64,000 bases of DNA from an uncultured Thermoanaerobaculia bacterium (GTDB lineage Bacteria > Acidobacteriota > Thermoanaerobaculia > Multivoradales > SZUA-115). The notes below the pieces were generated by a model, which was not told the DNA's origin, did no database searches, and worked only from the letters and a program-made list of their open reading frames with translations. Location of the stretch: contig CAYQRE010000022.1 in the NCBI GenBank assembly GCA_964420075.1, forward strand, positions 5,825 to 69,824, in the 5' to 3' direction. Within the stretch, counting starts at the first letter, position 1. The number at the start of each line of letters is the position of its first letter. Below, piece by piece: positions 38,766 to 63,067 of the stretch. The position numbers and the translations under genes are program-made.

Positions 38766-38850
38766 CAACGCGGACCTTTCTCGGTCGAGACCAGGGCTCG
38801 GAATACGTTTGCTAGCCGGAAGCGAACCATCGTGATGCGCAGATGGTTCT

Positions 38851-40563: not shown

Positions 40564-40576
40564 GGAGGTCTCGAGC

Positions 40577-41086: not shown

Positions 41087-41107
41087 GCTCCGGCCCGAGG
41101 GCGGACG

Positions 41108-43987: not shown

Positions 43988-43991
<4 letters not shown>
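42705..43991 (+). CDS. DUF4255 domain protein (eCIS tail terminator/cap, Afp16/Pvc16-like)
   Basis: N-terminus MSNYLAIATATATLRRFLQ… is characteristic of DUF4255. Confidence 0.8.
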
Positions 43992-45927
<1,936 letters not shown>

Positions 45928-45931
<4 letters not shown>

Positions 45932-46581: not shown

Positions 46582-46600
46582 GCCGCGGCGCCGAGGAGAT

Positions 46601-46903
46601 GTGATGCTCGATCCCGAAAGCCGTTACGCCGAGCTCGAGACCGCCACCCTGACCCTGGCGGACGGCCGCCAGGTCTCGTATCTCAAGCGGCGCTTCCTGC
46701 CGCAGGCGGAGGCGCTGTCCCTGCTCACCGAGGTGGCAGTGCGCGACGGCGAGCGGCTGGACCTGATCGCCGCCCGCACCCTCGGCGACCCTCTGCAATG
46801 GTGGCGGGTGGCGGACGCCAACGAGGCGATGCATCCCGACGAGCTGCTGGCCGAGCCCGGGCGCCGGCTGCGGGTGGCGGTGCCGGAGGTGCTGCCGCGG
46901 TGA
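46601..46903 (+). CDS. LysM-like tail protein (P2 gpX / Afp7 LysM-like)
   Basis: 100 aa. …GERLDLIAARTLGDPLQWWRVADAN… resembles LysM peptidoglycan-binding modules found in tail protein X. Confidence 0.55.
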   Translation: MMLDPESRYAELETATLTLADGRQVSYLKRRFLPQAEALSLLTEVAVRDGERLDLIAARTLGDPLQWWRVADANEAMHPDELLAEPGRRLRVAVPEVLPR

Positions 46904-48045
46904 GCGAGCTGGGCGTGCGCCTCACCCTGCTGCTCGGGCCGACGGTCGCCCGGCCGGCCCCCCTCGCCTTCATCGAGAACCTGGCGGCGGTCGAGGTGCG
47001 GCACAGCGACGAGGAGCGCTCGGGCTTCCAGCTCGTTTTCAAGGTGGGGCGGCGCGGGCCGCTCGACCTGCTCGAATACCCGCAGCTGCGCAGCCCTCTC
47101 CTCGCCGCCTTCAACCGGGTGATCCTGATCGTCACCTTCAACGTCCGACCGCGGGTGCTGATGGACGGCATCATCACCCACGTCGAGCTGCAGCCCGGCG
47201 ACGAGGCGGGGGCCGCGACATTGACGGTCACCGGCGAGGACGTCAGCGTGATGATGGACCTCGAGGAGCGGGCCGTCGAGCATCCGGCACTGCCCGATCC
47301 GGCGATCGTCTTCAAGCTTCTCGCCCGCTACGCCCGCTTCGGCATCCTGCCGGCGGTGGTGCCCCCGAAGGTGATCGACCCGCCGATCCCCATCGAGCGC
47401 ATCCCCGTGCAGGTGGGCACGGACCGCGAGTACCTCGAGACGCTCGCCCGCCGCCACGGTCACGTCTTCTACCTCACGGCCGGGCCGGCGCCGTTCACCA
47501 ACACGGCCTATTGGGGGCCGCCGCGCCGCCTCGGCGTGCCGCAGCGGGCACTCTCGGTGAACTTCGGCTCGCAGACCAACGTCACCTCGCTCGCCTTCCA
47601 GCACGACGCCCTGAAGCCGGCCTTCGTCGACGGCGACGCCATCGACGCCCGCTTCAATCGCAAGTTTCCCGTGCGCACCTTCGCCGCCCAGCGAGTGCCG
47701 CCGCTCTCTCTGCGGCCCACCTGGCTGGCGCAGCGGGCGAACACCCGCACGACGCTCTACCGTGGCTGCGCGCCCAGCATCCCCGCCGCCTTCGGTCGCG
47801 CCCAGGCCTACACCGACGCCTCGACCGACGCCACCGTCACCGCCTCCGGCGAGCTCGACGCCGCCCGCTACGGCGAGATCCTGCGCGCTCGCGAGCTAGT
47901 AGGGCTGCGCGGCGCCGGCCTTTCGCACGACGGTCTGTACTACGTCAAGGCGGTGACCCATCGCCTGGGACGGGGCACCTACACGCAGAGCTTCACCTTG
48001 ACCCGCGACGGACTGGGCACCACGGTGCCGGTGGTGCGGCCATGA
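46900..48045 (+). CDS. phage late-control gene D-like baseplate hub protein (gp27/VgrG-N-like)
   Basis: GTG overlapping the upstream stop. 381 aa. Its position immediately before the gpV-like spike supports the hub call. Confidence 0.65.
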   Translation: MSELGVRLTLLLGPTVARPAPLAFIENLAAVEVRHSDEERSGFQLVFKVGRRGPLDLLEYPQLRSPLLAAFNRVILIVTFNVRPRVLMDGIITHVELQPGDEAGAATLTVTGEDVSVMMDLEERAVEHPALPDPAIVFKLLARYARFGILPAVVPPKVIDPPIPIERIPVQVGTDREYLETLARRHGHVFYLTAGPAPFTNTAYWGPPRRLGVPQRALSVNFGSQTNVTSLAFQHDALKPAFVDGDAIDARFNRKFPVRTFAAQRVPPLSLRPTWLAQRANTRTTLYRGCAPSIPAAFGRAQAYTDASTDATVTASGELDAARYGEILRARELVGLRGAGLSHDGLYYVKAVTHRLGRGTYTQSFTLTRDGLGTTVPVVRP

Positions 48046-48560
48046 ACGAAGGCGGGATGTCGAACGGGCCGTTCTACGGCAAGTACCGCGGTAAGGTGAC
48101 CAATAACGTCGACCCGCTGCAGATGGGCCGCATCCAGGTCAGCGTGCCAGCGGTGCTCGGTGACGGCCGTCTGTCCTGGGCGCTGCCCTGCGCGCCGCTG
48201 GCGGGCCCGGGCGTGGGCTTCTACGCCGTGCCGCCCCTCGACGCCAACGTCTGGGTGGAGTTCGAGGCCGGGGACCCCGACTCGCCGATCTGGAGCGGCT
48301 GCTTCTGGGACAAGGGGCAGCTGCCCGTCAAGCCGGCGAACCCGTTCACCACCGTGCTCAAGAGCAAGAGCGTCACCCTCACCCTGGTCGATCTGCCGGG
48401 CGCCGGTGGCTTCACCCTCGAGGTCAAGCCGCCGGCGGTGGCCACACCGCTCAAGCTGGCCTTCACCTCGGCGGGGATCGAGCTCCAGAACGGCAAGAAC
48501 TCGATCAAGCTGTCGCCGGCCTCGGTGAGCATCAACAATGGCGCCCTGGAGGTGATCTAG
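48042..48560 (+). CDS. baseplate spike protein (P2 gpV / gp5-like OB-fold)
   Basis: 172 aa. N-terminal …GPFYGKYRGKVTNNVDPLQMGRIQVSVP… is the gpV/VgrG OB-fold signature. Confidence 0.75.
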   Translation: MNEGGMSNGPFYGKYRGKVTNNVDPLQMGRIQVSVPAVLGDGRLSWALPCAPLAGPGVGFYAVPPLDANVWVEFEAGDPDSPIWSGCFWDKGQLPVKPANPFTTVLKSKSVTLTLVDLPGAGGFTLEVKPPAVATPLKLAFTSAGIELQNGKNSIKLSPASVSINNGALEVI

Positions 48561-48883
48561 TGCCGGGCTTCCTCCTCCACAAGGGTGCCGTGGTGCAATG
48601 CGCCCACCTCGGGCGGGCGGAACCGATCCTCACCAACCCGCGGGTCAAGGTGGGCGGCCAGCCGGTGGTGACCCAGGCCGGCCCCTGGCGGGTCTCGGGC
48701 TGCACACTGCCGGCGCCGACGGCGGGCAACGGCCCCTGCCTCACCGCCCTGTGGAGCACGGCTGCCGTGCGCGTGCGGGCGAGCGGCCTGCCCCTCCTCC
48801 TCTTCGACAGCAAGGCGAGTTGCGTGCCGACGGCAACGCCGCTCACCGTCGTCGTCACGCAGCTGCGGGTACGCGGGCAATGA
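48560..48883 (+). CDS. PAAR-like spike-tip protein (DUF4280/PAAR family)
   Basis: 107 aa, Gly/Val-rich with conserved Cys/His (…VVQCAHLG…). Immediately follows the spike gene with a GTG overlapping the stop. Confidence 0.55.
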   Translation: MPGFLLHKGAVVQCAHLGRAEPILTNPRVKVGGQPVVTQAGPWRVSGCTLPAPTAGNGPCLTALWSTAAVRVRASGLPLLLFDSKASCVPTATPLTVVVTQLRVRGQ

Positions 48884-49245
48884 CCCAGGTCGGCTTCCCC
48901 TTCCGCCCCGATGGCAGCGGTCGCAGCGCTCTCGCGAGCGAGGAGCAGCACGTGCGCGACCTCATCGAGCAGGTGTTGTTCACGGCGCCGGGCGAGCGGG
49001 TGAACCGGCCGGACTTCGGTAGCGGGCTCCACCAGCTGCTCTTCGGCGCCGCGAGCCCGGAGCTCGCGGCGACCGTTCAGGCGGTGGTGCAGGGGGCCCT
49101 GCAGCAATGGCTGGCCGACCGCCTGCGGGTCGAGACGGTCGAGGTGAAGAGCGACGAGGCACGGCTGACGGTCACCGTCGTCTATTCGCCGCTCTCCGGC
49201 CTCGACCGCCGCGCCGTGGTCTTCGAGCGCGAGGTGGGTGGATGA
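48880..49245 (+). CDS. baseplate wedge protein gp25/GPW-like
   Basis: 121 aa with …VRDLIEQVLFTAPGERVNRPDFGSGLHQLLF…, the GPW/gp25 motif. Confidence 0.8.
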   Translation: MTQVGFPFRPDGSGRSALASEEQHVRDLIEQVLFTAPGERVNRPDFGSGLHQLLFGAASPELAATVQAVVQGALQQWLADRLRVETVEVKSDEARLTVTVVYSPLSGLDRRAVVFEREVGG

Positions 49246-51674
49246 GCCAGCCTGGCTTCGATCTCCTCGCCGATCCGACGGCCGACTTCCTGCGTGCGCG
49301 GCGGGCTGCCGTGGCGCAGCACGCGAGCCTGGTCGGCCTCGACCAGGTAGAGATCACAGCCTCGGCCCCCGGCAGCTGGCAGCTCGCCCTGCACTTCCTG
49401 CCGGCGGCGGCGGGCCGCGAGGGCAAGCACGCCGTGCTGGCCACAGTCGGCCCCGCGCAGATCGAGCTCCGCCTCGGCGCCGAGCTCGCCACGCCCTACC
49501 TGCTGGTCAGCAGTGTCAGCCAACCCGCTGGCCCGCCGCCAGCGCCGCGCCTCGACCTCACTGTCGTTCAGCCAGCCGCAGCGGCGGTGGGGCCGGCCGT
49601 CTTGACGCTGAGGGTGAACGGCCTTCCCGCCCTCGATCCGTTCTTTGCCTGCGTGCCCTTCTCGCTGCAACCGGCAGCTCCGGCGGCGAGCGATTGCCAG
49701 TCCGCGGCCGTGGCCAGCGCGCCGGCCGCGGCGCCAGCCGAGGCGGCGATCTCCTACCTCGGCCGCGACTTCCTCTCCTTCCGCCGCTTCCTCCTCGACC
49801 GCCTGGCCGTCAACATGCCGAGCTGGCAGGAGGAGAACCCGGCCGACCCCTGGGTGGCCGTCCTCGAAGTGCTCGCTGACGCCGCCGACCGGGTGAGCTA
49901 CTTCGAGGATGCCGTCGCCACCGAGGCCTATCTCGGCACGGCGAGGCGGCGGATCTCGGTGCGCCGGCACGCTCGCCTGGCGGGCTACCGGTTGGAAGAG
50001 GGGGCCAACGCCCGCACCTGGGTGCGGGTGACGGCGGTGGCCGACGGCGCCACGCTGCCGGCCGGGAGCCAGCTCCTCTCGCGCCTTCCCGGCCTGCCCG
50101 CCGTCCTCGCCCCCGGCTCGGCCGAGCTCGACTTGGCGCGGGCGCGCGGGCCGCTGGTCTTCGAGACCCTGCACGCGCTCGACTTGGTCGTCGCCCACAA
50201 CGTGCTGCCGCTCTACGATTGGGGGGCGCCGACCTACGCCCTGGCCGCGGGGGCCACCGAGGCGGTGCTCGACGGTAGCTTTCTCGACCTTTCCGCGGGG
50301 GACGTGTTGGTGCTGGCCGAGGTGGCCGGCCCGCAGAGCGGCCTCGCCGCCGACGCCGACCCGGCCCACCGCCACGCCGTGCGCCTGACGGAGGTGGCGC
50401 TCGGCAGCGACCCCCTGGCGAGCGGCGGTCCGCGGCCCTTGACCCTCGTGCGCTGGCACCCTGAGGACGCTCTGCCCTTCACCCTCTGTCTGGCGGCGCC
50501 CGTGGGCAGTGCCACCGTCCGCGGCCTGGCCCTTGCCTGGGGCAACGTGGTGCTCGCCGACCACGGGGAGACGATCGCCGCCGAGGCGCTCGGCACGGTG
50601 GCGGACGGCACGCCGTTTCGTCCGACCCTGGTGCGCAGCGGCCTGGCCTTCGTGCGGCCCTACGACGACGCTGCCGCCCGCGCCACGAGCGCCACCGCGG
50701 CGCTTGCGGCGAGCAGCACCGCCGTCCCCGCCCTCGCCCTCGACGACGGGACCGCCAGCTGGCAGCCCCGAGAAGACCTGCTGGCCAGCGGGCCGACGAG
50801 CCGGGACTTCGTGGTCGAGATGGATGACGAGCGGCGGGCCCGCCTGCGCTTCGGCGACGGCAGCAACGGCCTCGCGCCGGCGGCGGGGTCGACCTTCGCC
50901 GCCCGCTACCGGGTGGGCGGAGGTTGCGCCGGCAACCTCGGACGCGGCGGCCTGCGCCACGTGGTGGCGGCGGGCGCCGCGGTCGGCGGTGCCGAGAACC
51001 CGCTCCCCGCCGTGGGGGGGAGCGAGCCCGAGGAGCTGGCGAGCGCCCGCCAGCTCGCCCCCCAGGCGCTCACCGGCGGCGGCCGCTGCGTGAGCGTCGC
51101 CGAGTTCGCCTGCCGCGCCGAGGAGCACGCCGCCGTCGCCCGCGCAGCCGCCGACCTGCGCTTCAATGGCAGCTGGCACCTGCTGACGGTGGCGGTCGAG
51201 CGCCGCGACGGCGCCGCCCTGCCCCCGGCTTTCACGGCGGAGCTCGCCGCCTTCCTCGAAGCCGACCGCCTGGCTGGCTGGGAGCTCGCGGTGGTGCCGG
51301 TGAGCTACGTGGGCCTCGACATCGCGTTCGCCGTGGTGGTCGAGCCGGCCGCCTTCCGTGGCGTCGTCGAGCGCGACCTGCTAGCGGCCCTCGGCCCGGA
51401 GGGCTTCTTCGCCCCCGGCCGCTTGCGCTTCGGCGAGGCGGTGTACCTGGGGCCGCTGGTGGCGGCGGCGCAGGCGGTCCCCGGGGTGCGCGCCGTCGAG
51501 CTCGACCCGGCGCCCGGCGGGCGGGCCCGCTTCCAGCGTTGGGGAGAGCCGCCGCGGGGTGAGCTGTCGCGCGGCGAGATCTCGCTCGGCGGCCTCGAGG
51601 TCGCCCGCCTCGACAACGACGCGGCCCGCCCCGAGCGTGGCCGATTGACGCTCTACCTGGAGGGTGGGCGGTGA
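49242..51674 (+). CDS. large baseplate protein (gp6/gp7-like wedge component, uncharacterised)
   Basis: 810 aa. ATGA-coupled between the gp25-like and J-like genes. No specific motif assigned. Confidence 0.5.
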   Translation: MSQPGFDLLADPTADFLRARRAAVAQHASLVGLDQVEITASAPGSWQLALHFLPAAAGREGKHAVLATVGPAQIELRLGAELATPYLLVSSVSQPAGPPPAPRLDLTVVQPAAAAVGPAVLTLRVNGLPALDPFFACVPFSLQPAAPAASDCQSAAVASAPAAAPAEAAISYLGRDFLSFRRFLLDRLAVNMPSWQEENPADPWVAVLEVLADAADRVSYFEDAVATEAYLGTARRRISVRRHARLAGYRLEEGANARTWVRVTAVADGATLPAGSQLLSRLPGLPAVLAPGSAELDLARARGPLVFETLHALDLVVAHNVLPLYDWGAPTYALAAGATEAVLDGSFLDLSAGDVLVLAEVAGPQSGLAADADPAHRHAVRLTEVALGSDPLASGGPRPLTLVRWHPEDALPFTLCLAAPVGSATVRGLALAWGNVVLADHGETIAAEALGTVADGTPFRPTLVRSGLAFVRPYDDAAARATSATAALAASSTAVPALALDDGTASWQPREDLLASGPTSRDFVVEMDDERRARLRFGDGSNGLAPAAGSTFAARYRVGGGCAGNLGRGGLRHVVAAGAAVGGAENPLPAVGGSEPEELASARQLAPQALTGGGRCVSVAEFACRAEEHAAVARAAADLRFNGSWHLLTVAVERRDGAALPPAFTAELAAFLEADRLAGWELAVVPVSYVGLDIAFAVVVEPAAFRGVVERDLLAALGPEGFFAPGRLRFGEAVYLGPLVAAAQAVPGVRAVELDPAPGGRARFQRWGEPPRGELSRGEISLGGLEVARLDNDAARPERGRLTLYLEGGR

Positions 51675-54265
51675 GCGACCTCCTCGCCAACCTCGCCGGC
51701 AAGCCGCCGGCGACAGCACCGGGGCCGACACTCGGTACGAGCGCAGGAACCCCGGCCGGCCCGGCGAGCCTCGCCTTCCGTACCGGCACGCAGGCGAGCT
51801 TCCGGGCGCGGCTGCTCGCCGCGCTGGCGACGATCGCCATCCCGGACGGTCCCTACGCCGGCAGCCGCCCGCTCGCCGACCTCGCCGTCCTCGACCCCAG
51901 CGACCCGGCGATCGCCCTCGTCGACGCCTGGGCCGCGGCCCTCGACGTGCTCACCTTCTACCAGGAGCGGATCGCCAACGAAGGCTTCCTGCCGACGGCC
52001 GGCGAGCGGCGCTCGCTCCTCGAGCTGGCGAACCTGGTGGGCTACGCGCTGTCACCGGGGCTCGCAGCGAGCGTGTTTCTCGCCTTCACGGTGGAAGAAG
52101 GGGCAGGCGGCCCGGAGTCGGTGGTGGTGCCGGCGGCCACCCAGGTGCAGAGCATCCCCGGCCAGGACGCCCAGCCGCAGACCTTCGAGACGGCGAGCGA
52201 GATCACCGCCCGCGCGGCGTGGAACGCCCTCGCGCCCCGCCTGTCGCGCCCGCAGGTGCTCCCCGGCGCGACCGCCGTCTACCTCGCCGGGACGGCGACC
52301 GGCCTGGCCCCTGCCGACCTCCTCGTGGTGGTGGGCAGCGACGCCGCCGGCGCCTTCTCCGGCGCCAGCGTGGCGCGGGTCCAGGCCCTGGCCACGGACG
52401 ACGCGCTCGGCAGCACCAGGGTGGACCTCGCGGCGCCGCTGGCCGTGGCGCCGGCGGCGAGCTTCGCGGTCTTCGCCCTGCGCACCCAGGCGGACTTCTT
52501 CGGCCACAGCGCTCCCAACTGGGGCAGCCTGCCACGCAGCAGCGTGTTCCGCGACGACCCCTTCGACGAGGCCGTGGCGGCCAGCAACTGGGACACTGGC
52601 CGTACCGTGTGGACGGACTCACAGGGTCGCCTGCTGAGCAGCCTGCGGGGCTTCGAGGCGAACCTCGACGGCCCGGTCGCTGGCCTCGTGGCCGGCGGCT
52701 GGGTGGTGCTCGTGGGGACGACCCTCGATGGCGGCGAGGCGACCGAGGTCTACCGGCTGACCGCGGTGGCGAGCCTCACCCTCGCCGACTACTCGCTCTC
52801 CGGCCCGGCCACCGCCCTCGGGCTCGCCGGCGCCGACGGCTCGGCGCTGCCGGGCGAAGAGCTGCTGCGCACCCGTTTCGATTTCCGGCGCACCCGAGCC
52901 TACCTGGCGAGTGAAGAGCTGGCGCGCGCCGAAGAGCCGATCGTGGCGCCTTTGCCCAACCTCGAGGAGGACGGCGGCTTCGCCAACCTGACCCTCGCCG
53001 GTGAGGTCACGGGCCTCGCTCTCGGCCAGGCCATCGCGCTGCGGGGCGAGCGCAGTGACGGCACGGGGCCGGCGAGCGAGCTCTTCACCCTGCACCGCAT
53101 CGACGCGGTGGCTGCGGCGGGAGGAGCCGGGCCGTGGACGCGGCTGCAGTTCGACCGCCCGTTGGCGGCGAGCTACCAGCGGGAAAGTGTGCGGCTCAAC
53201 GCCAACGTCGTCCTCGCCAGCCACGGCGAGACGGTGAGCGAGACGCTCGGCAGCGGCGACGGTACCCAGGCCCGGCAACGCTTCGCGCTGCAGCGCTCGC
53301 CCCTGACCTACCAGCCGGCGCCGGCTGCCGGTGGCGTTGCCAGCAGCCTCAGCGTGCAGGTGGACGGGGTCGCCTGGCGCGAGGTGAAGACCCTTGCCGC
53401 GGTCGACGGCGCCAGCCGCAGCTTCATGATCGAACGCGATGACGGTGGCGGCGGCGCCGAGCGGGCGAGCGTCGTCTTCGGCGACGGCCAGCACGGCGCC
53501 CGGCTGCCGAGCGGCTTCGAGAACGTGACCGCGGTCTACCGCACCGGCCTCGGCGCGGCGGGAGCGGTACCGGCCGGGGCCCTGTCGTTGCTCGTCACCC
53601 GGCCGCTGGGGGTGAGCGAGGTCACCAACCCGCTGGCCGCCAGCGGGGCGGCGCCGGAGGAGGACGTCGAGGCGGCGCGCCGCAACGCCCCGCTCGCCGC
53701 CCGCACCCTCGGCCGCCTCGTCTCGCAGCGGGACTTCGAGGACTTCAGCCGTGCCTTCGCCGGCATCGCCAAGGTCCAGGCGGCCCCCTTGCTGGGCCTC
53801 CACCTGACCGTGGCGGGCGTCGGCGGCAGCGCCGTCGTCCCCGGCTCGGAGCTCTATCGCAACCTGGTGCAGGCGATCACCGACCTGCGCCTGCCGGGGC
53901 CTCCCGTGCGCGTCGACAGCTACGCCGCGGTGCCCTTCCGGCTGGCGGCGAAGCTGCTGCTCGATCCGGCCTACCTGCCATGCGAGGTCTTCGCTGTCGC
54001 GACCGCGGCCCTCGCCGGCGCTTTCGGTTTCGACCGGCGCGAGCTGGGCCAGGGGGTCGAGGCGTCGGCGGTGATCGCCGTCCTCCAGGCCATCGAGGGC
54101 GTCGTCGCCGTCGACCTCGACGCCCTCTACCTGGAGGGCGAGGAGCCAGCTTTCCAGTCCTCACTGCGGGCACGCCCGGCCCGCCTCGAAGGCGGTCGGG
54201 TCCGCCCGGCCGAGCTGTTGCAGCTGGCCGCGGACGGCGTCCTCCTGCGGAGCCGGACGCCATGA
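51671..54265 (+). CDS. baseplate J-like protein (gp6/P2 gpJ family)
   Basis: GTG overlapping the upstream stop. 864 aa. …LDVLTFYQERIANEGFLPTAGERRSLLELANLVGY… resembles the baseplate-J conserved core. Confidence 0.65.
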   Translation: MSDLLANLAGKPPATAPGPTLGTSAGTPAGPASLAFRTGTQASFRARLLAALATIAIPDGPYAGSRPLADLAVLDPSDPAIALVDAWAAALDVLTFYQERIANEGFLPTAGERRSLLELANLVGYALSPGLAASVFLAFTVEEGAGGPESVVVPAATQVQSIPGQDAQPQTFETASEITARAAWNALAPRLSRPQVLPGATAVYLAGTATGLAPADLLVVVGSDAAGAFSGASVARVQALATDDALGSTRVDLAAPLAVAPAASFAVFALRTQADFFGHSAPNWGSLPRSSVFRDDPFDEAVAASNWDTGRTVWTDSQGRLLSSLRGFEANLDGPVAGLVAGGWVVLVGTTLDGGEATEVYRLTAVASLTLADYSLSGPATALGLAGADGSALPGEELLRTRFDFRRTRAYLASEELARAEEPIVAPLPNLEEDGGFANLTLAGEVTGLALGQAIALRGERSDGTGPASELFTLHRIDAVAAAGGAGPWTRLQFDRPLAASYQRESVRLNANVVLASHGETVSETLGSGDGTQARQRFALQRSPLTYQPAPAAGGVASSLSVQVDGVAWREVKTLAAVDGASRSFMIERDDGGGGAERASVVFGDGQHGARLPSGFENVTAVYRTGLGAAGAVPAGALSLLVTRPLGVSEVTNPLAASGAAPEEDVEAARRNAPLAARTLGRLVSQRDFEDFSRAFAGIAKVQAAPLLGLHLTVAGVGGSAVVPGSELYRNLVQAITDLRLPGPPVRVDSYAAVPFRLAAKLLLDPAYLPCEVFAVATAALAGAFGFDRRELGQGVEASAVIAVLQAIEGVVAVDLDALYLEGEEPAFQSSLRARPARLEGGRVRPAELLQLAADGVLLRSRTP

Positions 54266-56289
54266 GCGAGCGCCTCTACCACCGCTTGCCGGAGGTGATC
54301 CGGCGGCGCGACCACGAGGTCGGCGAGCCGCTGCGCGCCCTCCTCCTCCTTCTCGAGGGCGAGCTCGTCGCCGTCGAGCGGGACGTCGCCGGCCTCTATG
54401 AAAGCTGGTTCCTCGAGACCTGCCCGCCCTGGGCGGTGCCCTACCTCGCGCAGCTCCTCGGGGTGAGCGTGCTGGGCGACCCCGCCTACGCCGAGGCCTC
54501 GCCGCGCACCCAGCTGGCGCGGGCCGTGGCCTACCGCCAGCGCAAGGGCACGGCGGCCGTCCTCGAACGCCTGGCCCGCGAGGTGGTGGGTTGGCCGGCG
54601 CGCGCCGTGGAGTATTACCGGCACCTCGCGCACACCCAGAACCCCACCCTACTTCGCTTCGACCAGGGGCGCCTCTTCGACCTCCGCCGGCCGGGCGACG
54701 CCAGCCTCCAGGGCGGGCCGTTCGAGCCGCCGGAGCGCTTTCGCAGCGTCGACGTGCGGCGCATCACCAGCGGCCGCGGTCGCTACAACGTGCCCAACCT
54801 GGGCCTCTTCCTCTGGCGGCTCAAGGTCAACCCGCTGACCGCCACGGCACGGCGGCTGACCTCCGGCTCCGGCCGCTACACCTTCGACACCTTGGGCCGC
54901 GACGTGGCGCTGTTCAACCCGGCGCCGCCCTTGCCGGCGAACGGCGAGCGCCAGGCCGCCGAGCACCAGCTGCCCGTGGCCCTGCGGCCGGCGGCGCTCG
55001 CCGCCGACCTCGGGCTCTACTACGGCAGCGACCTGGCCTTCGCCGTCGAGGCCGACGGGGCGCTGGTGCCCCTCTCCGCGATCGTGGTGAGCGACCTCGG
55101 CGCCTGGGCCGCACCGCCGGCCGGCAAGGTGGCGGTCGACCCCCTGCTCGGCCGCATCCTGTTCGCGGCCGATCGCCTGCCGGCGGCGGTGGACTCGGTG
55201 CGGGGCCGCTACGCCTACGCCGCGGCGGCCGACCTCGGCGGCGGCCCCTACCCGCGGGCGGCGACGCTCTCCGATCTGGCGAGCGCGCCGTTCACAGCCA
55301 CCGTCAGCAAGGCGGGAGCGGTCACCACCCTGCAGCAGGCGATCAGCCTCTGGCAGGCGGACGGCCGGCGCGACGGGGTGATCCGCGTCGCCGACGCGGA
55401 GAGCTACGGCGGCAGCCTCGCCGTCGCCTTACCGGCCGGTGGGCGTTTGGCGATCGAGGCGGCGGACGGCGTGCGCCCCACCCTCAATCTGGTGGGCGCC
55501 TTCGCCGTCTCGGCCAGCGACCGCGGGGCGACCCTCACCCTCAACGGCCTGCGCCTGGCTGGCGCCATCGAGCTCACCGGCAGCCTCACCCTGCGCCTGC
55601 TCCACACGACGCTCGTCCCCGGGAGCGGGGACAGCCTGCGCGCGGGTGCCGGCGGGGTAGGGGAGCTCGCGGTCGAGATCGAGTGCTCGATCGTCGGTGC
55701 CATCCGCCTGCCGGCGGGGATCGTCGGCCTGCTGGCCCGCGACAGCGTCCTCGACGGCAACGGCCGGCGGGCCCTCGCCGCCAGCGACGCCGACGATCCG
55801 CCGGGCCCGGCGAGCCAGCTCGAGCGGGTGACGGTGCTCGGCGGTGCCGCCCTCGACGCCCTGCCGCTCGCCACGGAGGTGCTCTTCGCGGCCAGCGTGG
55901 TGGTGCGCCACCGCGCCGAAGGTTGCGTGCGCTACAGCGCCGCCCCAGCCGGCTCGCAGCTGCCGCCGTGCTTCCGCTGCCAGCCGGACCTGGCGCTCGT
56001 CCGCGAGGCCGAGGCCCTGGGCCTGGCGAGCCTGCCGGACCCCTCGCCCGACCGCGCGCGGGTGCTCGCCGCCTTGACGCCGCGGTGGACCTCGACGCGC
56101 TACGGCGACCCCGGCTACGCGCAGCTCGCCGCCGGCAGCCATCCGGGCCTCGCCGAGGGAGCGGAGGATGGCGGCGAGATGGGGGCCCTGCACTCCCTGG
56201 CCGAGCCGCTGCGCCGCCGGCAGCTCGCCGAGCTGGTGGCCGAGTACGGCCGCTTCGGCCTCGAAGTGGGGAGTTTCTTCGTCACCTGA
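54262..56289 (+). CDS. phage tail protein, P2 gpI-like (Tail_P2_I family)
   Basis: N-terminus MSERLYHRLPEVIRRRD…PLRALLLLLEGEL… matches the P2 gene I family signature. Confidence 0.7.
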   Translation: MSERLYHRLPEVIRRRDHEVGEPLRALLLLLEGELVAVERDVAGLYESWFLETCPPWAVPYLAQLLGVSVLGDPAYAEASPRTQLARAVAYRQRKGTAAVLERLAREVVGWPARAVEYYRHLAHTQNPTLLRFDQGRLFDLRRPGDASLQGGPFEPPERFRSVDVRRITSGRGRYNVPNLGLFLWRLKVNPLTATARRLTSGSGRYTFDTLGRDVALFNPAPPLPANGERQAAEHQLPVALRPAALAADLGLYYGSDLAFAVEADGALVPLSAIVVSDLGAWAAPPAGKVAVDPLLGRILFAADRLPAAVDSVRGRYAYAAAADLGGGPYPRAATLSDLASAPFTATVSKAGAVTTLQQAISLWQADGRRDGVIRVADAESYGGSLAVALPAGGRLAIEAADGVRPTLNLVGAFAVSASDRGATLTLNGLRLAGAIELTGSLTLRLLHTTLVPGSGDSLRAGAGGVGELAVEIECSIVGAIRLPAGIVGLLARDSVLDGNGRRALAASDADDPPGPASQLERVTVLGGAALDALPLATEVLFAASVVVRHRAEGCVRYSAAPAGSQLPPCFRCQPDLALVREAEALGLASLPDPSPDRARVLAALTPRWTSTRYGDPGYAQLAAGSHPGLAEGAEDGGEMGALHSLAEPLRRRQLAELVAEYGRFGLEVGSFFVT

Positions 56290-56306: not shown

Positions 56307-58652
56307 ATGCAAGGGGATTTGAGCCGCCACAGCCACGACCCTGCGAAGCGCTTCACGGCGGTGCGCTTCGAGCAGGGGCGGATGCTCGCCGACGCCGACC
56401 TCAACGAGGCGATGCTGCTGGCGCTGGCGCGCCTCGACCGCGTGGCAAGCGATCTCGTGGGGCCCAGCGGCGCGCCGGCGGAGCCGCCCGTTCCCTTCAC
56501 CTGGCAGCCCAGCGCTCTCGACCCCCAGCAGGTGGGGGTCGGCGCCATTCTCACCACGGGCACGGCGGTGATCGGTCGCGGCACGAGCTTCTTCGCCGCC
56601 GGTATCGCGGCGGGGGCACGGCTCCATGCCGGTGGGCAGACGCGCACCGTCGCCACCGTGCTCACCGAGACCGTGCTCCTGGTCGACGAGCCCTTCGAGC
56701 CGGACCTGCCGGCGGCCGGCAATTTCCAGATCACGGTGCGCGACGGTGGGGCCGGCCTGCAGGTGCACGCCGGCTGCTACAGCGTCGCGGGCTTGCGCTG
56801 CGAGCTGGCGGCGACGGTGGCGCTCTCTGCCCAGCCGGACCTCCCCGGCTATGCCCTGCCGAGCGCCGACGGCCGCTATCTCGCCTACCTCGAAGCCTGG
56901 GAACGCACCCTCTCGACGCTCGCGGAGCCCCTCCTCGCCGAGCCGGCCCTGCTCGGGCCGGACACCTGCCTGCGCACCCGGGTGGTGGCCCAGGTCAAGC
57001 TCCTCGCCGTCGGCGCGACGGCGACCTGCGGTGGCTTTGCGGCCTGGGAGCCGTTGCCTCCAGCCGTCCAGCTGGCGGCGCGAAGCCTGGGCCGGCCCCC
57101 TGCCGACCGTCTCTACCGGGTCGAGGTCCAGGCCCCGGGCCCGCCGGGCACGGCGACCTTCAAGTGGGCGCGGGACAACGCCAGTGCCGCGGCGCCGATC
57201 GAGGCCCTGGGGCCCGGCGAGATCACCGTCGCACCGCCGATCGGACTGGCGGGGGAGGCGGCCTTCGCTGCCGGGCAGTGGGTGGAGGTGAGCGACGAGC
57301 GGCGCATTCTCGCCGGCGAGCCCGGCGTGCTCGTGCAGCTCGCGCGCGTCGTAGGCCAGGTGCTCAGCGTCGAGAGCTGGCCGGGTGGCACGCCGCCGCT
57401 CCTCGGCGCCGGCGCGAGCGCCCGCCGTTGGGACTCACCGGGTGAGGTGAGCGTCGAGGTGGGGGAGGCCGGGGACCTCTGGCTATCGATCGAGGGCGGC
57501 CTCGAGGTGCGTTTCGCAGCGGCAGCGGCGGCCAGCTGTGCCGTGGGGGACGCCTGGCTCCTGCCGGTGCGGGTGGCGAGCGGTGGGGTGCTCTGGCCGC
57601 AGCTCGCCGGCACCCCGCTGGCGGTGGACCCGCAGTCGCCCCGCCACCGCTTCGCACCCCTCGCCATCGTCGAGCGGAGTGGCGGCCGTTTCCGGGTAGT
57701 GAGCGATTGCCGCCGCCTCTTCGGCTCCCTCGCCGACCCGCCGAGCGACACCAAGCTCGACCGCGTGCCGGACCCGCCGCCGGCCGGGCCGGACCTGATG
57801 GAAGGGCCGTTGGTGATCGCGAGTGACCTCGCGGTGCTGGGCGGTTTGAGCGTCGGGAGCGTCGACCCGCCGGCGCCAGACCTCCGCCTCGAGGTCACCA
57901 ACGGGGACCTGTTGCTTGCTGCGGGTGGGAGCGCAGGCGTGGTCTGGCCGCCTCTCGCGAGCGGCGGGGCTGCGGGCTTTCTGCGCTTCAGCCAGGTCGC
58001 GGGAGCCACTCCCCAGCTGACCCTCGGCAGCCAGGGCGGCGGTAGCGACCGCCTCATCCTCCGCCAGGGCGGTGTCGACCGCCTGGTGATCGACAATGGC
58101 CGCTTGGGGGTCGGGACGGTGCCGGCGGCCGGGTTCGCCCTCGACGTCGCCGGGACGATGCGGGCCCAGAACCTGCGCATCGAGGGCCCGGTGGTGATCG
58201 CCGGCGGCGCACCGAGCCCCGGTGCCCTCTTCATCACCGACGACGCCGGTCGCGGCAGCTGGGTGCAGCCCCCCGTGCTGGCGCGCGGCCGGCCGCTCTT
58301 CTTTCCGGCACCGGTCGCCGTGGCGAGCGGTGTCGGGGCGGCCCCGGAGACGATCTTCACCTTCCCGGCCGGCGTCCTCTCGCCGGGTGCCCTCGCCGTC
58401 ATCCTGGAAGCCGAGGCGGCGGCCAACACCGGCGACGGGGTGATCCAGATCGCGACCGACCCCGGGGGCACCAAACGCCTGCTGCTGCGGGCCCGCTCGG
58501 AGGGTAGCGGCGACAGCCTGGCCTGGGCCGGACAGGGCGCTTTCCCGCTCAACCAGGAGAGCTTCGTCTACGAGGTCCTTGAGATCACCGCCAACGACGG
58601 CCCGGCCTTCTCCCACGGCTGGGTCTTGCGCGCCATCGGCTACTACCCATGA
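56307..58652 (+). CDS. tail-fibre-like protein, paralog 1 of 3 (781 aa)
   Basis: GAGGAGGG RBS. Blocks shared with the two downstream paralogs: N-terminal GDxSR…QGRxLLDADxNE, …GYALPSxDGRYLAYLEAWER…, LYRVEVQAPGPPGTATFKWARDNAS, WPQLAGT, HRFAPLAIVERSGG…, and C-terminal W.LRA.G[YF][YF]. Confidence 0.6.
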   Translation: MQGDLSRHSHDPAKRFTAVRFEQGRMLADADLNEAMLLALARLDRVASDLVGPSGAPAEPPVPFTWQPSALDPQQVGVGAILTTGTAVIGRGTSFFAAGIAAGARLHAGGQTRTVATVLTETVLLVDEPFEPDLPAAGNFQITVRDGGAGLQVHAGCYSVAGLRCELAATVALSAQPDLPGYALPSADGRYLAYLEAWERTLSTLAEPLLAEPALLGPDTCLRTRVVAQVKLLAVGATATCGGFAAWEPLPPAVQLAARSLGRPPADRLYRVEVQAPGPPGTATFKWARDNASAAAPIEALGPGEITVAPPIGLAGEAAFAAGQWVEVSDERRILAGEPGVLVQLARVVGQVLSVESWPGGTPPLLGAGASARRWDSPGEVSVEVGEAGDLWLSIEGGLEVRFAAAAAASCAVGDAWLLPVRVASGGVLWPQLAGTPLAVDPQSPRHRFAPLAIVERSGGRFRVVSDCRRLFGSLADPPSDTKLDRVPDPPPAGPDLMEGPLVIASDLAVLGGLSVGSVDPPAPDLRLEVTNGDLLLAAGGSAGVVWPPLASGGAAGFLRFSQVAGATPQLTLGSQGGGSDRLILRQGGVDRLVIDNGRLGVGTVPAAGFALDVAGTMRAQNLRIEGPVVIAGGAPSPGALFITDDAGRGSWVQPPVLARGRPLFFPAPVAVASGVGAAPETIFTFPAGVLSPGALAVILEAEAAANTGDGVIQIATDPGGTKRLLLRARSEGSGDSLAWAGQGAFPLNQESFVYEVLEITANDGPAFSHGWVLRAIGYYP

Positions 58653-58864
58653 GCGATACCGACACCCCTGCCGTCCCGCAACCCGACCGTGCCCGCTTGG
58701 AGCGCCGGCTCGCCGAGCTCGACGCCGAGCTCGCCAACGGCGAGCGGCTGATGGCCGAGCTGGAGGACCGCCGCCTGCGCCTGCGCGAGTCGATGCTGCG
58801 CATCGGCGGCGCCATCCAGGTGCTGCGCGAGCTGCTCGATCGGCCGCCGGAGGAGGGGGCATGA
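58649..58864 (+). CDS. small coiled-coil protein (71 aa), possible fibre assembly chaperone
   Basis: ATGA-coupled on both sides. Heptad-like …RLERRLAELDAELANGERLMAELEDRRLRLRESMLRIGGAIQVLRELL…. Confidence 0.4.
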   Translation: MSDTDTPAVPQPDRARLERRLAELDAELANGERLMAELEDRRLRLRESMLRIGGAIQVLRELLDRPPEEGA

Positions 58865-60978
58865 GGGGCGACTTCTCGCGTTCAGGGGCCGCTGTGGCCC
58901 GCAGCCGGCGCAGCGTCGTCTGGCAGCGTGGCCGGGTCGTCCTCGACGCCGACTGGAACGAGGCCGTCGAGCTTCAGGCCGCCGCCCTGGAGGCGCTGGC
59001 GAGCGATCTCTTGGGCGCTGCCGGGAGCCCGAGCGGCGCCGCTCTCGACGTCACAGTCACAGCCGGCGTCCCGACGCTCACGGCCGGCCGATCCTACGTG
59101 GACGGCAGCCTGGTCGAGGTCGAGGCCGCCACCCCGCTCACCGCACAGGCCGACCTGCCGGGCTATGCCTTGCCGAGCGTCCCCGGGCGCTACCTCGCCT
59201 ATCTCGACGTCTGGCTGGAAGGCCTCGGCTGGCTCGACAGCCCGGAGCTCCTCGAGCCGGCCCTCGACGGCGAGGAGAGCGCCCTGCGCAGCCGCGCGGT
59301 GGCGCAGGTGCGGCTCCTGGCGGTCGATGCCGCCGCCGGGCCGGAGCTCTTCCGGCCGGGCTGGCAGCCGGCGGCAGCGCCGCGGCCGCGGCTCGCCGCA
59401 CGCCTCGCGGGTAGCCCGGCCAACAATCAGCTCTACCGCCTCGAGGTCCACGCTGCTGGTGGTCTCGGCACCGCCACCTGGAAGTGGTCGCGGGACAACG
59501 CCAGCGTCACGGCCGGCGTGCTGTCGATCACCGGCACCACGCTTGCCGTGCGCCTGCCGCCACGGGCAGACGCCCTTGCCTGGTTCCCGCCGGGCGGTTG
59601 GGTCGAGGCGACCAGCCGCAGGCGGCGGCTGCGCGGCGAGCCGGGGGTGCTGGCCCGTGTCCTCACCACGATCCCCGGTGCGAGCCCCACTGTCACCGTC
59701 GAGGCCTGGCCAGGAGGCGTGGTGCCGGTGGACGTCGACCGCCTGGTGCGTTGGGATTCCCCCGGTGCCCTGCCGCTCGCTCAGGCGACGGCCAACGGGG
59801 GTTTCGTGCCCCTCGAAGAGGGCCTCGAGGTGCGCTTCTCGGGCGAGGCGGCAGCTGTCGCCACCAGTGGTGACGCCTGGCTGCTGCCGCTGCGGGCCAC
59901 CGCCGGGCTGCTCAGCGAGGAGGACGCCGGCGCTCGCGCGGACGCTGCCACCGCCGAGCCGGACGAGGTCCGCCACCACTACGCGCCACTGCGCCTGCTC
60001 GAGCGCACGGCCGGCGGCTGGCAGCTGGTGGCCGACGGCGACTGCCGGGCGCTCTTCGCGGGTGCCGGCACCATCGACCTCGCCGGCAAGGTAGATCGCA
60101 GTGGCGATACGCGCAGCGGACCCCTCACCGTCGACAGCCATCTCTTGGTCAGCGGCCAGACCCGGCTGGGGCCGGTGGCGGCCGACAGCACGGCGCGCCT
60201 CGCGGTCGCCGACGGCGGCAGCCGGCTGGGAGCGAGCTCGCGCCTGCTGTTCCCGGCGCTCGGGGCGGCCGCGGCGTCCTTGAGCGCGAGCGGCAACGAG
60301 CTGCGGTTGGCGGTCGTCGGCGGCTCGCTGCGCGTGGCGCAGGCCGGGGGGGACCGCCTCGTCCTCAGCGGCGGCCGGGTGGGGATCGGCACGGTCGCGC
60401 CGCAGGTCGACGTCGAGATCGCCGGCAGCCTGCGCGCCGGGCAGCTGACGGTGGCGAGCGAGCTGGTGATCGTCGACGGCAACCAGCGGGCTGGCCGCGC
60501 CCTGACGGCGGTCGATGCGAGCGGCCTCGCCACCTGGCAGGCGCTCAGCGAGCAGCAGCTGGTGCGTCCGACCTTTTTCCAGCGGCCGGTGATCGTGGCA
60601 CAGAGCGGGGGCAGCAGCTTCTTGCCGCTGGTCAACTACGTCTTTCCGGCCAACACCCTGCCGGTGGGTGCGACGGCGGTGATCCTCGAAGGGCGGGCGG
60701 CGGCGAACTCGCCCGACAGCGGTGCAATCGACCACTTCCTGCGGGCCCGTCGCGACGACGCCTCGCCCTGGCTGGTGCTGCTGCGGGCGCGCGCCGCCGG
60801 CGGCTCGGACAACGGCAGCTGGGCCGGTGTCGGCGTCTTCCCCCTCAACACCAACCCGGACCTACCCTTCCACTTCCAATACTCCGTCCAGGCCTTCGCC
60901 GGTGGCCAGGACGTGCCGCCCACCGGCGGCGCCTTCCCCCAGGGCTGGCGCATCCGAGCGGTGGGCTTCTTCCTCTGA
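58861..60978 (+). CDS. tail-fibre-like protein, paralog 2 of 3 (705 aa)
   Basis: Shares all conserved blocks with paralogs 1 and 3 (…LYRLEVHAAGGLGTATWKWSRDNAS…; C-terminal WRIRAVGFFL). Confidence 0.6.
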   Translation: MRGDFSRSGAAVARSRRSVVWQRGRVVLDADWNEAVELQAAALEALASDLLGAAGSPSGAALDVTVTAGVPTLTAGRSYVDGSLVEVEAATPLTAQADLPGYALPSVPGRYLAYLDVWLEGLGWLDSPELLEPALDGEESALRSRAVAQVRLLAVDAAAGPELFRPGWQPAAAPRPRLAARLAGSPANNQLYRLEVHAAGGLGTATWKWSRDNASVTAGVLSITGTTLAVRLPPRADALAWFPPGGWVEATSRRRRLRGEPGVLARVLTTIPGASPTVTVEAWPGGVVPVDVDRLVRWDSPGALPLAQATANGGFVPLEEGLEVRFSGEAAAVATSGDAWLLPLRATAGLLSEEDAGARADAATAEPDEVRHHYAPLRLLERTAGGWQLVADGDCRALFAGAGTIDLAGKVDRSGDTRSGPLTVDSHLLVSGQTRLGPVAADSTARLAVADGGSRLGASSRLLFPALGAAAASLSASGNELRLAVVGGSLRVAQAGGDRLVLSGGRVGIGTVAPQVDVEIAGSLRAGQLTVASELVIVDGNQRAGRALTAVDASGLATWQALSEQQLVRPTFFQRPVIVAQSGGSSFLPLVNYVFPANTLPVGATAVILEGRAAANSPDSGAIDHFLRARRDDASPWLVLLRARAAGGSDNGSWAGVGVFPLNTNPDLPFHFQYSVQAFAGGQDVPPTGGAFPQGWRIRAVGFFL

Positions 60979-60985
60979 GGGCGCC

Positions 60986-63067
60986 ATGGGCCTCGACCTC
61001 TCCCGCGACCTCTTCGACCGCCGCCGGCATCACCGCGGCGTGGTGCTGCAGCAGGGCCGCCTCCTGCTCGACGCCGAGTTCAACGAGCAGGCCGACATCC
61101 TCGAGCACCGCCGGCGCACCACCACGGCGGACCTGGTGGGCCCGAGCGGCGCCGCCGGCGACGGCTTCCGCGTCACGGCGGGTAGCGGCACGCTTGCCGT
61201 CGCGCCGGGCCGCCTCTACCGTGACGGCTTCCTCTGCGAGCTGCTAGCGGCCGTTCCCGATCTCGGAGCTCAGCCCGACCTGCCAGGGGTGGCGCTGCCC
61301 ACCGCCAACGGCACCTATCTCGCCTATCTCGAAGCCTGGGAGCGCGAGGTCTCGGCGGCGGTCGATGCCGACCTCCTCGACCCGGCCTTTGCCAGCCAGA
61401 GGACGGCCGGTCGCCACCGCCTGGTCACCCAGGTGCGGCTGCAGGCGGTGCCGGCGGGGGCGGTCTGCAGCTCTTTCGCCCCGCCCTGGACCCCGGACGG
61501 CACGCCGGCACCCGCCGCCGGGACGCTTGCCGCCAGCGCGGCGGCGGGGGCCACGACGTTCGCGGACCAGCTCTACCGCGTCGAGGTCCACGCTCCCGGG
61601 CCAGCGGGCACCGCGACCTGGAAGTGGGCCCGCGACGGCGCCTCCGTGGAGCTCGCCGTGCTGAGCGTGGCCGGGACGACGCTCAACGTCGCGCCGCGGC
61701 CGGGGCTCGCGCCGGGGACGGCCCTGGCGGCCGGGGATCGGGTCGAGGTGACCGACGACGGCCGCGCCCTGCGCGGCGAGCCGGGGGTGCTGGCCACGCT
61801 CGCTGCCGTCGACCTCGCGGCCGGCACCTTGACCGTCGCCGCCTGGCCGGGGGGCGCGCCGGTCCTCGGCAGCGGCGCCGTGGCCCGCAAGTGGGAAGGC
61901 GACGCCCAGCCCCTCAACGCCGGTGCGACCGTCGTGGTCGACGGTGTGCTGGCGCTGCGCTTCGCGGCCGGCGGCCGGCCGTTCCGCAGCGGTGAGCACT
62001 GGCTGGTCCCCACCCGCCGGGCAGCCGGGGTGCTCTGGCCGCAGCTCGCCGGCACTGCCGAGCCCTTGCCTCCACGCGGCCCGGAGCGCCACTTCGCGGC
62101 CCTCGCCCTGGTGCAGCGCGCCGCAGGCAGCTGGACGGTGGCGAGCGATTGCCGCGTGCCGCTGCGGCCGCTCACCGACACCCTCGACCCTAACAAGGTG
62201 GACCGCGGTGGCGACAGCATGACCGGCCCCCTGACGGTGACCGAGGACCTGATGGTCGTCGCCCAGATGCATGCCGGCGGTACCACCCTGCCTCCGGCCG
62301 GCACCCAGCTGCAGGTGAGCGGCGGCCCCCTGGAAGTGGCGAGCGGTGCCAGCCCGGCGGCGGGCTTGCGCTTCGTCGTTGGGGCCGGCGAGGCGGCCCT
62401 GCGGCTGACTGCGGCAGGCTTCGTCTTCGAGGCAGCAACGGGCGGCAGCCTGGTCTTCCGCGAAGGGGCCGCCGACCGCCTGGTGCTGGCGGCGAGCGGC
62501 AACCTCGGCCTCGGTGTGGCGAGCCCCACGGCGAGCCTGCAGACCGGCGGCCAGGCGCGCGCCACGGCTCTCACGGTGAGCGGCGCCGCCCCCAACGGCG
62601 TCCTCACCTTCGAGCCGGGCGCGATCGACGGCTACGTGCTGACCTCCGATGCCGACGGCAAGGCAACCTGGCAGCAGCTGCCGAGCGCGGCGAGCGGCAG
62701 CCCGGTCTACTTCCCGGACCTCGTCGTGGTGGCGAACGGCAGCACGCCGAGCGGCTACCAAACGTTCACCTTCTCCGATGGCGATGTCCCCGAGGGCGCC
62801 TCGGCCGTCCTCGTCCAGGCGCAGACCTTCGTCCACCACGGTTCGGTCGACATCCGGATTCGGCGCAATGCGGGCGCAGCCGAGGTCTCCTTGCTGCGCG
62901 CGCACTCCTTCGACGGTGGCCCGCTGGTCGGCAAGCGGGTGCAGGGGGGCGCCGCCAATCAGGGCATTTTCCCCCTCGACAACGGCAGCTTCCAGTGGGC
63001 CGTGGTCGAGGAGTTCGGGCCGCTCAGCCTGGCCTGGGAGATCCGTGCCGTGGGCTTCTTCCTGTAG
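60986..63067 (+). CDS. tail-fibre-like protein, paralog 3 of 3 (693 aa)
   Basis: Shares conserved blocks (…LYRVEVHAPGPAGTATWKWARDGAS…; C-terminal WEIRAVGFFL). Confidence 0.6.
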   Translation: MGLDLSRDLFDRRRHHRGVVLQQGRLLLDAEFNEQADILEHRRRTTTADLVGPSGAAGDGFRVTAGSGTLAVAPGRLYRDGFLCELLAAVPDLGAQPDLPGVALPTANGTYLAYLEAWEREVSAAVDADLLDPAFASQRTAGRHRLVTQVRLQAVPAGAVCSSFAPPWTPDGTPAPAAGTLAASAAAGATTFADQLYRVEVHAPGPAGTATWKWARDGASVELAVLSVAGTTLNVAPRPGLAPGTALAAGDRVEVTDDGRALRGEPGVLATLAAVDLAAGTLTVAAWPGGAPVLGSGAVARKWEGDAQPLNAGATVVVDGVLALRFAAGGRPFRSGEHWLVPTRRAAGVLWPQLAGTAEPLPPRGPERHFAALALVQRAAGSWTVASDCRVPLRPLTDTLDPNKVDRGGDSMTGPLTVTEDLMVVAQMHAGGTTLPPAGTQLQVSGGPLEVASGASPAAGLRFVVGAGEAALRLTAAGFVFEAATGGSLVFREGAADRLVLAASGNLGLGVASPTASLQTGGQARATALTVSGAAPNGVLTFEPGAIDGYVLTSDADGKATWQQLPSAASGSPVYFPDLVVVANGSTPSGYQTFTFSDGDVPEGASAVLVQAQTFVHHGSVDIRIRRNAGAAEVSLLRAHSFDGGPLVGKRVQGGAANQGIFPLDNGSFQWAVVEEFGPLSLAWEIRAVGFFL

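Follow-up and report, generated by a model that had tools for sequence, protein, structure and literature searches.

Three old, diverged tail-fibre paralogues in an extracellular contractile injection system from a lineage related to Thermoanaerobaculia

Why would a locus encode three versions of the same fibre-like protein side by side? The question is raised by a DNA stretch of 64,000 nucleotides (contig CAYQRE010000022.1, assembly GCA_964420075.1; "the window" below always means this whole stretch) from an uncultured Thermoanaerobaculia bacterium of the Acidobacteriota. A preliminary description, made from the letters alone, had pointed out three consecutive fibre-like genes between 56307 and 63067 and had placed them in the slot of a P2 H-like tail fibre. 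We report here that these genes, referred to as g1, g2 and g3 and encoding fibres of types a, b and c, are old and diverged copies of a tail fibre of an extracellular contractile injection system (eCIS). In our preferred reading, to which we give a probability of roughly 0.6, one operon produces three different homotrimeric fibres, which sit with their eBAP5 anchor domains on the gpI-like wedge protein and offer more than one binding specificity. The genes of the fibre cassette are the following.

56307..58652, plus strand: fibre gene a (g1), 781 aa, made of an anchor, a beta-helix shaft and a beta-sandwich tip
58649..58864, plus strand: coiled-coil gene, 71 aa, lying between g1 and g2; its product may be a fibre chaperone or an accessory protein
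58861..60978, plus strand: fibre gene b (g2), 705 aa
60986..63067, plus strand: fibre gene c (g3), 693 aa

All three fibre genes are intact open reading frames on the plus strand, and their products start with a common motif, M-x-G/L-D-x-S-R (MQGDLSR in g1), in a window with a G+C content of about 73%. The suspected triplication was borne out, as g1, g2 and g3 are mutual paralogues by BLASTP (E values from 1e-93 to 1e-101) with pairwise identities of 38.6-42.1% over about 670 aligned residues. They are not strictly consecutive, since the 71-aa gene at 58649-58864 lies between g1 and g2, and the pattern of conserved termini and divergent middles that had been proposed gives way to a gradient, along which the mean identity among the paralogues of one genome falls from 49% (anchor) through 39% (shaft) to 36% (tip). 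Along the aligned proteins, identity is highest around g1 residues ~160-350, the core of the N-terminal domain, where it amounts to 45-72%, and it drops to about 20-45% over the C-terminal half, while the extreme ends keep short motifs only. The shared motifs quoted earlier are present with small deviations: QGRxx is followed in g1 by A in place of L, PGYALPS...YLAYLExW is variable in g2 and g3, g1 and g3 have WPQLAGT and g2 lacks it, and the C-terminal W.[LI]RA[IV]G[YF][YF] occurs in all three. At the DNA level the best blocks among the copies reach just 60-80% identity and are coding; beyond these blocks, no DNA repeats from a recent duplication, from gene conversion or from the template of a diversity-generating retroelement were detected. 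The duplication is therefore old, with neither recent duplication nor gene conversion behind it, and the uniform identity that a simple recent duplication would leave is not seen. Moreover, the gpI-like gene, g1, the 71-aa gene, g2, g3 and the following gene are separated by 17, -4, -4, 7 and 11 nt, respectively. The ATG of the 71-aa gene lies on the stop of g1 and its own stop lies on the ATG of g2, so that the genes are translationally coupled through ATGA overlaps. These overlaps, together with the gaps of 17, 7 and 11 nt, make one tight operon from the gpI-like gene to the gene after g3.

To which family do these proteins belong? The preliminary description could not place them, yet a family exists and was published in 2026. 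The N-terminal part of each protein matches the Pfam domain DUF6519 (PF20129) with 89.2, 84.7 and 92.0 bits for g1, g2 and g3, respectively, all above the cutoff of 22.4 (E 3.3e-25 for g1 and 7.3e-24 for g2), and the same domain is carried by 113/113 homologues. DUF6519 corresponds to eBAP5, which belongs to a set of five N-terminal domains that anchor eCIS tail fibres to the baseplate and was counted in 658 fibre genes (Nachmias et al., Nat Commun 2026, PMC12923769). The earlier suggestion that the conserved N-terminus is the baseplate-attachment region thus agrees with a recognised anchor. The hallmark of eBAP5 is a shoulder-like fold with an insertion of about 200 residues composed of small beta-barrel/beta-sandwich units, and published AlphaFold3 (AF3) models docked eBAP5 on the upstream Tail_P2_I-like (gpI-like) protein (PMC12923769). 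In the window, g1 starts at 56307 directly after the end of the gpI-like gene at 56289, and the gpI-like protein is the probable docking partner of the three anchors. The boundaries of the anchors were set by alignment.

54262..56289, plus strand: gpI-like baseplate wedge protein, 675 aa (Tail_P2_I E 2.7e-6; TIGR02242 and TIGR01634 weak)
56307..57740, plus strand: g1 anchor, residues 1-478, including the extra module of type a
58861-60075, plus strand: g2 anchor, residues 1-405
60986-62182, plus strand: g3 anchor, residues 1-399

The extra module of g1 comprises about 80 aa (residues ~60-139, nt ~56484-56723) after the N-terminal helix and is not present in g2 or g3. The AlphaFold2 (AF2) monomer models of g1 and g3 have a mean confidence (pLDDT) of 81.6 and 83, respectively; the anchor of g1 exceeds 90 outside the extra module and has values of 46-76 inside it, and in g3 the anchor is confident over residues ~11-400.

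What follows the anchor was divided into a shaft and a tip.

57741..58268, plus strand: g1 shaft, residues 479-654, MAT-type triple beta-helix repeats
58269..58649, plus strand: g1 tip, residues 655-781, Bd2133-like beta-sandwich, candidate receptor-binding domain
60076-60543, plus strand: g2 shaft, residues 406-561
60544-60975, plus strand: g2 tip, residues 562-705
62183-62677, plus strand: g3 shaft, residues 400-564
62678-63064, plus strand: g3 tip, residues 565-693

A profile of shaft plus tip matches the Bdellovibrio protein Bd2133 (8ond) in three repeat stretches with an E value of 3e-12, as well as Bd1334 (8oml, E 1e-6) and Bd3182 (8ojn, E 2.7e-5) through the beta-helix repeats, and g3 alone as query gives a MAT-fibre match at E 3e-4. 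MAT (mosaic adhesive trimer) fibres crystallise as trimers with exchangeable tips, among which the tip of Bd2133 was described as a new fold (Caulton et al., Nat Microbiol 2024, PMC10769870). The shaft region has low pLDDT in the AF2 monomer models of g1 and g3, in keeping with a chain unable to fold outside a trimer, while the tip of g1 reaches about 90-97 and the C-terminal beta-sandwich is confident in the g3 model as well. The tip is 19% identical to that of Bd2133 and is a Bd2133-type beta-sandwich by predicted structure. Profile matches and AF2 models together describe the C-terminal part as the shaft of a trimeric fibre with an adhesin-type tip, in line with the receptor-binding fibres first proposed, and no enzymatic fold appears in the predicted structures of g1 and g3.

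General family databases say little about this region. The C-terminal halves of g1-g3 fall into no family in Pfam, NCBIfam or PHROGs, the tip family has no Pfam model, and among PHROGs the fibres show just two matches, of which the first, to phrog_9942 'tail fiber', is local (E 6.6e-5) and the second is to phrog_877, a family of unknown function. Searching g1 with phmmer against PDB sequences returned chance antibody matches only. The C-terminal 228 residues of g3 found zero matches in a database of 5.8 billion proteins, their own parent included, which we read as a search miss and not as absence; by local phmmer the same fragment strongly matched the proteins P0001-P0017 and recovered its parent at E 7e-85. 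A profile built from the tip only was far more productive, as it found 290 clusters in a search of 1.84 billion representative proteins, 106 of them at E <= 1e-10, so the family is made up of at least 290 sequence clusters at 50% identity. The domain lies at the extreme C-terminus in nearly all of these 290 clusters. Upstream of it, in a sample of 92 proteins, we found DUF6519, collagen repeats, phage-tail modules, a shufflon or PilX pilin N-terminus and a YadA stalk; given such varied N-terminal partners, the domain behaves as an exchangeable, portable adhesin tip. Family members P0123-P0267 are mostly 150-450 aa long and end in the tip domain; within P0123 itself (1981 aa), three stretches match the tip profile.

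Which machine, then, carries these fibres? The slot given by the preliminary description was right, with a Tail_P2_I gene directly before g1, but the assumed P2-type tail was not, as the surrounding genes are those of an eCIS. The rest of the structural operon spans 39025..54265 on the plus strand and was annotated from Pfam/NCBIfam as listed here, together with the gene that follows g3.

39025, plus strand: sheath
40577, plus strand: tube, gp19-like
41108, plus strand: T4_baseplate-like
42705, plus strand: Pvc16_N
43988, plus strand: AAA ATPase
45928, plus strand: CIS_tube
48042, plus strand: spike, Phage_base_V
48880, plus strand: gp25
49242-51674, plus strand: baseplate-J-like 1, 810 aa, TIGR02243
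51671-54265, plus strand: baseplate-J-like 2, 864 aa, TIGR02243
63079..64000, plus strand: eCIS_core (DUF4157), candidate effector, Pfam E 1.3e-26, running past the end of the window (full gene 446 aa)

That g1-g3 could be tail-fibre genes of a P2-like prophage is suggested by the Tail_P2_I-like gene just before them and by the gp25, baseplate-J-like, sheath and tube genes. However, the eCIS markers Pvc16_N, CIS_tube, eCIS_core, sheath, tube and AAA ATPase all lie at 39-64 kb, and a scan of the genes at 0.6-10.9 kb, at 28.7-64 kb and within 5 kb past the end of the window, which did not cover ~10.9-28.7 kb, turned up no domain of a capsid, portal, terminase, integrase or lysis protein. No P2 gpH/gpG-type fibre or Tfa family is matched in Pfam, NCBIfam or PHROG, and the gene after g1 encodes a 71-aa coiled coil instead of Tfa. 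The prophage reading was rejected on this gene content and we regard it as extremely improbable. Among the same scanned genes no families specific for the type VI secretion system were found, the only shared domain being the OB fold of the Phage_base_V spike. It is thus very probable that g1-g3 are eCIS fibres.

Did the three fibres arise in this genome only, or have they been kept for long? Two other Thermoanaerobaculia metagenome-assembled genomes (L001 and L002) carry the fibre trio in an identical order and have the small gene at the corresponding place, and the one-to-one orthologues are 45-52% identical, versus 38-42% for paralogues (g1 51-52% in both; g2 48% in L001 and 45% in L002). 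The order is repeated on contig L021, which reads a (partial), small gene, b, c and eCIS_core, and in part on L022, which reads b (partial), c and eCIS_core. The three-fibre set is therefore ancient and maintained, being present in the same order in at least three other genomes. In a neighbour-joining tree, the three types form three monophyletic orthologue clades, which together are sister to another fibre clade. The preliminary description had proposed a search for single-copy loci in related genomes, and they occur in this sister clade: each of the three loci fetched from it (L014, L017 and L019) holds one fibre gene, then a 70-aa gene and then an eCIS_core gene. A sister clade with a single fibre and the small gene indicates that the ancestral cassette consisted of a fibre gene plus the small gene. 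Between orthologues mean identity is 59% in the anchor, 54% in the shaft and 53% in the tip, against 49%, 39% and 36%, respectively, between paralogues of one genome. Hence the paralogues differ most in the tip, where binding is expected, and the tip sequence particular to each type is preserved from genome to genome, a pattern that, as far as sequence comparison goes, would fit three maintained specificities.

The small gene deserves attention of its own. Gene calls in four public copies of the contig include it, and it is kept after the a-type fibre in L001, L002 and L021; in L014, L017 and L019, a counterpart of about 70 aa follows the only fibre gene. Its product is a predicted coiled coil with 9 detectable homologues of 60-100% identity and belongs to no family in Pfam, NCBIfam or PHROGs. 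Phage T4 gp57A is a fibre chaperone, a coiled coil of 79 aa. The 71-aa protein resembles it in length (~70-80 aa), in its predicted coiled coil and in its tie to trimeric, beta-structured fibres, but shows no detectable sequence similarity to it, and its gene is embedded in the fibre cassette. By this analogy in size and type, and from its constant linkage to a fibre gene, the 71-aa protein may be a helper of fibre trimerisation or folding, that is, a putative chaperone.

Starting from the paralogy, domain identities, operon context, orthology and cassette conservation that we observe, the following model can be proposed. In the ancestor of this acidobacterial, Thermoanaerobaculia-related eCIS clade, two duplications would have turned a cassette of fibre plus coiled-coil gene into a, coiled-coil gene, b and c, and the copies would have been kept since in that order, each with its own tip sequence. 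In every fibre the DUF6519/eBAP5 domain would anchor the protein to the gpI-like wedge, the shaft of MAT-type beta-helix repeats would fold only as a trimer and the Bd2133-type beta-sandwich tip would contact the target surface, while the small coiled-coil protein would most likely aid trimerisation or folding. Three types of homotrimer would be co-expressed and would compete for, or share, six baseplate positions. Perhaps the particle, or the particle population, would thereby recognise more than one surface receptor, ahead of sheath contraction and the delivery of the eCIS_core effectors.

Several points weigh against this preferred reading. The trimeric state, the docking site and the stoichiometry are only inferred, as the predictions are of monomers, and it is an assumption that six equivalent baseplate sites serve three fibre types. 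The likeness of the tip to Bd2133 comes from predicted structure, with the sequence-profile match covering the shaft alone, and the tip of Bd2133 is itself without a known ligand (PMC10769870), so that the target of the fibres in the window cannot be named. The chaperone role of the 71-aa protein, argued by analogy, is without homology support. Finally, over the first 58 residues the fibres are 53-64% identical within a type and 48-50% between types a, b and c, and such type-specific N-terminal signatures could instead mean distinct docking sites or hetero-oligomers.

The last point leads to other explanations of the three genes. One of them owes its appeal to the constant retention of the three genes: a, b and c could be the chains of one obligate heterotrimeric fibre, with the locus encoding one fibre type and not three. 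Complement C1q and the heterotrimeric collagens evolved in this manner, from homotrimers after tandem duplication, and the ancestor here was a single, presumably homotrimeric, fibre. The fixed order, the retention of each of the three genes in every readable genome of the clade, the common three-module architecture, the translational coupling or tight spacing of the genes and the N-terminal signature kept by each type are all in agreement with it. Yet the shafts of a, b and c differ in length within a genome (176, 156 and 165 residues, respectively, for the window; 181, 162 and 170 for L001), which would break the register of a triple beta-helix, and the tip loops carry indels of up to 15-20 residues. 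The module of about 80 aa is present in one chain only, is doubled in the a chain of L001 and lies in the b chain of L002, where the c chain in turn has lost about 200 anchor residues in frame, and the solved relatives are all homotrimers. We hold an obligate heterotrimer to be decidedly unlikely, and its fuller version, with an asymmetric, three-faced tip assembled with the help of the co-encoded 71-aa protein, to be a little less likely still. If true, it would be a prokaryotic parallel to complement C1q and, to our knowledge, a heterotrimeric fibre without precedent among contractile injection systems.

Alternatively, the types could divide the labour from non-equivalent baseplate sites, one making the reversible first contact and another giving irreversible binding or the firing signal, in the way that T4 shares the work between long and short tail fibres. 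Type-specific anchor signatures kept across genomes, the extra module of type a adjoining the anchor helix, the long-term retention of all three types and the docking surfaces that two baseplate-J paralogues plus gpI could offer would suit such an arrangement. The anchor fold, however, is common to all and the lengths are near-equal, unlike those of long and short fibres, and published models put eBAP5 on the gpI-like protein only (PMC12923769); this possibility we consider unlikely. It may also be asked whether the machine is extracellular at all, or whether the fibres tether it to the membrane or envelope of the producing cell, in the manner of the cyanobacterial tCIS or the cytoplasmic CIS of Streptomyces. 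In favour of such a tether, the related anchors eBAP3 and eBAP4 have the shoulder-like fold of the tCIS crown protein (PMC12923769). Nonetheless, Streptomyces-type cytoplasmic CIS are without fibres (PMC12923769), the tip module occurs elsewhere on phage fibres, predator fibres, pili and collagen-like surface proteins, which argues for outward adhesion, and eCIS_core effector genes come after the fibres, so an intracellular tether seems very unlikely.

How new is such a locus? In ~90% of eCIS loci the fibre genes come after Tail_P2_I or baseplate J, and 2-5 fibre genes are found in 23.4% of the loci, some of them described as 'evolved duplicates' (PMC12923769). The fibres of the window share with the published eBAP5 fibres the N-terminal DUF6519 and the position after Tail_P2_I in an eCIS operon, and the locus shares with published eBAP5 loci the presence of several fibres as diverged duplicates with a modular C-terminal binding region. 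They differ in the shaft and the end, which in the published set are mostly macroglobulin-like with pectin-lyase, lectin or haemagglutinin ends (PMC12923769), and here are a MAT-type beta-helix and a Bd2133-type sandwich. Multi-fibre eCIS loci with diverged duplicates are thus already known and common, the window is a well-preserved and largely ordinary example, and the picture of how eCIS work is unchanged. As the kind was catalogued in 2026, the new points are refinements. In the text and some of the supplementary tables of that work (PMC12923769) we found no Thermoanaerobaculia-related host lineage of the Acidobacteriota, no mention of the conserved 71-aa partner gene, no eBAP5 anchor joined to a shaft of the Bdellovibrio type and a Bd2133-type tip, and no demonstration of a long-maintained, one-to-one orthologous fibre triplet. 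The MAT fibres of Bdellovibrio bacteriovorus (Bd2133; PDB 8OND, 8OK3; PMC10769870) are predator surface or vesicle proteins of about 1000 aa with an N-terminal region of their own, whereas the N-terminal 400-480 residues of g1-g3 are the DUF6519 eCIS anchor. The proteins g1-g3 therefore share modules with the MAT fibres and are not members of the MAT family. Afp13 of the Serratia Afp and Pvc13 of the Photorhabdus PVC, each single-copy in its system, occupy the same slot as target-binding fibres after gp6/gp7-like baseplate genes. They combine a helical anchor of about 50 aa (eBAP1) with adenovirus-type fibre domains (PMC12923769) and show no sequence or fold match to g1-g3. The locus accordingly adds a clean, evolutionarily stable three-fibre eCIS from an under-sampled lineage related to the Thermoanaerobaculia. 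It also links two unconnected literatures, as the candidate receptor-binding end of these eCIS fibres is built of the shaft and tip modules of Bdellovibrio prey-recognition fibres. For eCIS engineering it provides one scaffold in three natural versions, along with a small protein that may serve as a helper.

Some smaller observations on the fibre anchors and their surroundings were made along the way. The extra module of 80-85 aa has the consensus ...G.G.V...G..V.G.GT.F......G..I.VGGQ.R.V.... and a single insertion site, after the N-terminal helix; one copy is found in g1, two in tandem in the a-type fibre of L001 and one in the b-type fibre of L002. The c-type fibre of L002 (L002 4717-6216) has only 486 aa, as an in-frame gap drops about 200 residues of its DUF6519 domain, roughly the insertion that is said to set eBAP5 apart from eBAP3/4; the gap may be an artefact of assembly, or it may have left a natural anchor of minimal size. 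The gpI-like proteins of the sister clade with one fibre are 1957-2733 aa long (L014 1780-9981; L019 1963-9963; L017 3079-9983, where the gene is split in two). The first ~530 and last ~175 residues of these giant proteins match the 675-aa protein of the window, with about 1900-2000 unannotated residues inserted, and one fibre with a giant gpI versus three fibres with a short gpI looks like alternative baseplate decoration.

In the baseplate itself, the two baseplate-J-like genes are tandem paralogues (~31% identical over ~350 residues), the first of which (49242-51674) has no Pfam Baseplate_J match. Directly beyond g3, two eCIS_core proteins (446 and 453 aa) flank one protein of 526 aa that combines Methyltransf_28 with TPR (63079-64000 in the window, continued on L010, 16773-21140), and an equivalent pair of an eCIS_core and a methyltransferase/TPR gene also follows the single fibre in L014; no toxin domain that would hint at the target was recognised in the C-terminal parts of these effector candidates. 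The window opens with ten genes (0.6-10.9 kb) of ordinary chromosomal appearance, and those at 7944-10929 on the plus strand (a MerR-type regulator with B12-binding domains, CarH-like by its domains, an amine-oxidase-type flavoprotein and a DUF1365 protein) place the eCIS in a bacterial chromosome. Just upstream of the sheath gene and divergent from it, at 31617-38768 on the minus strand, lies a gene for a protein of 2383 aa with about 17 DUF11 repeats as well as DUF7507 and CARDB-like domains.

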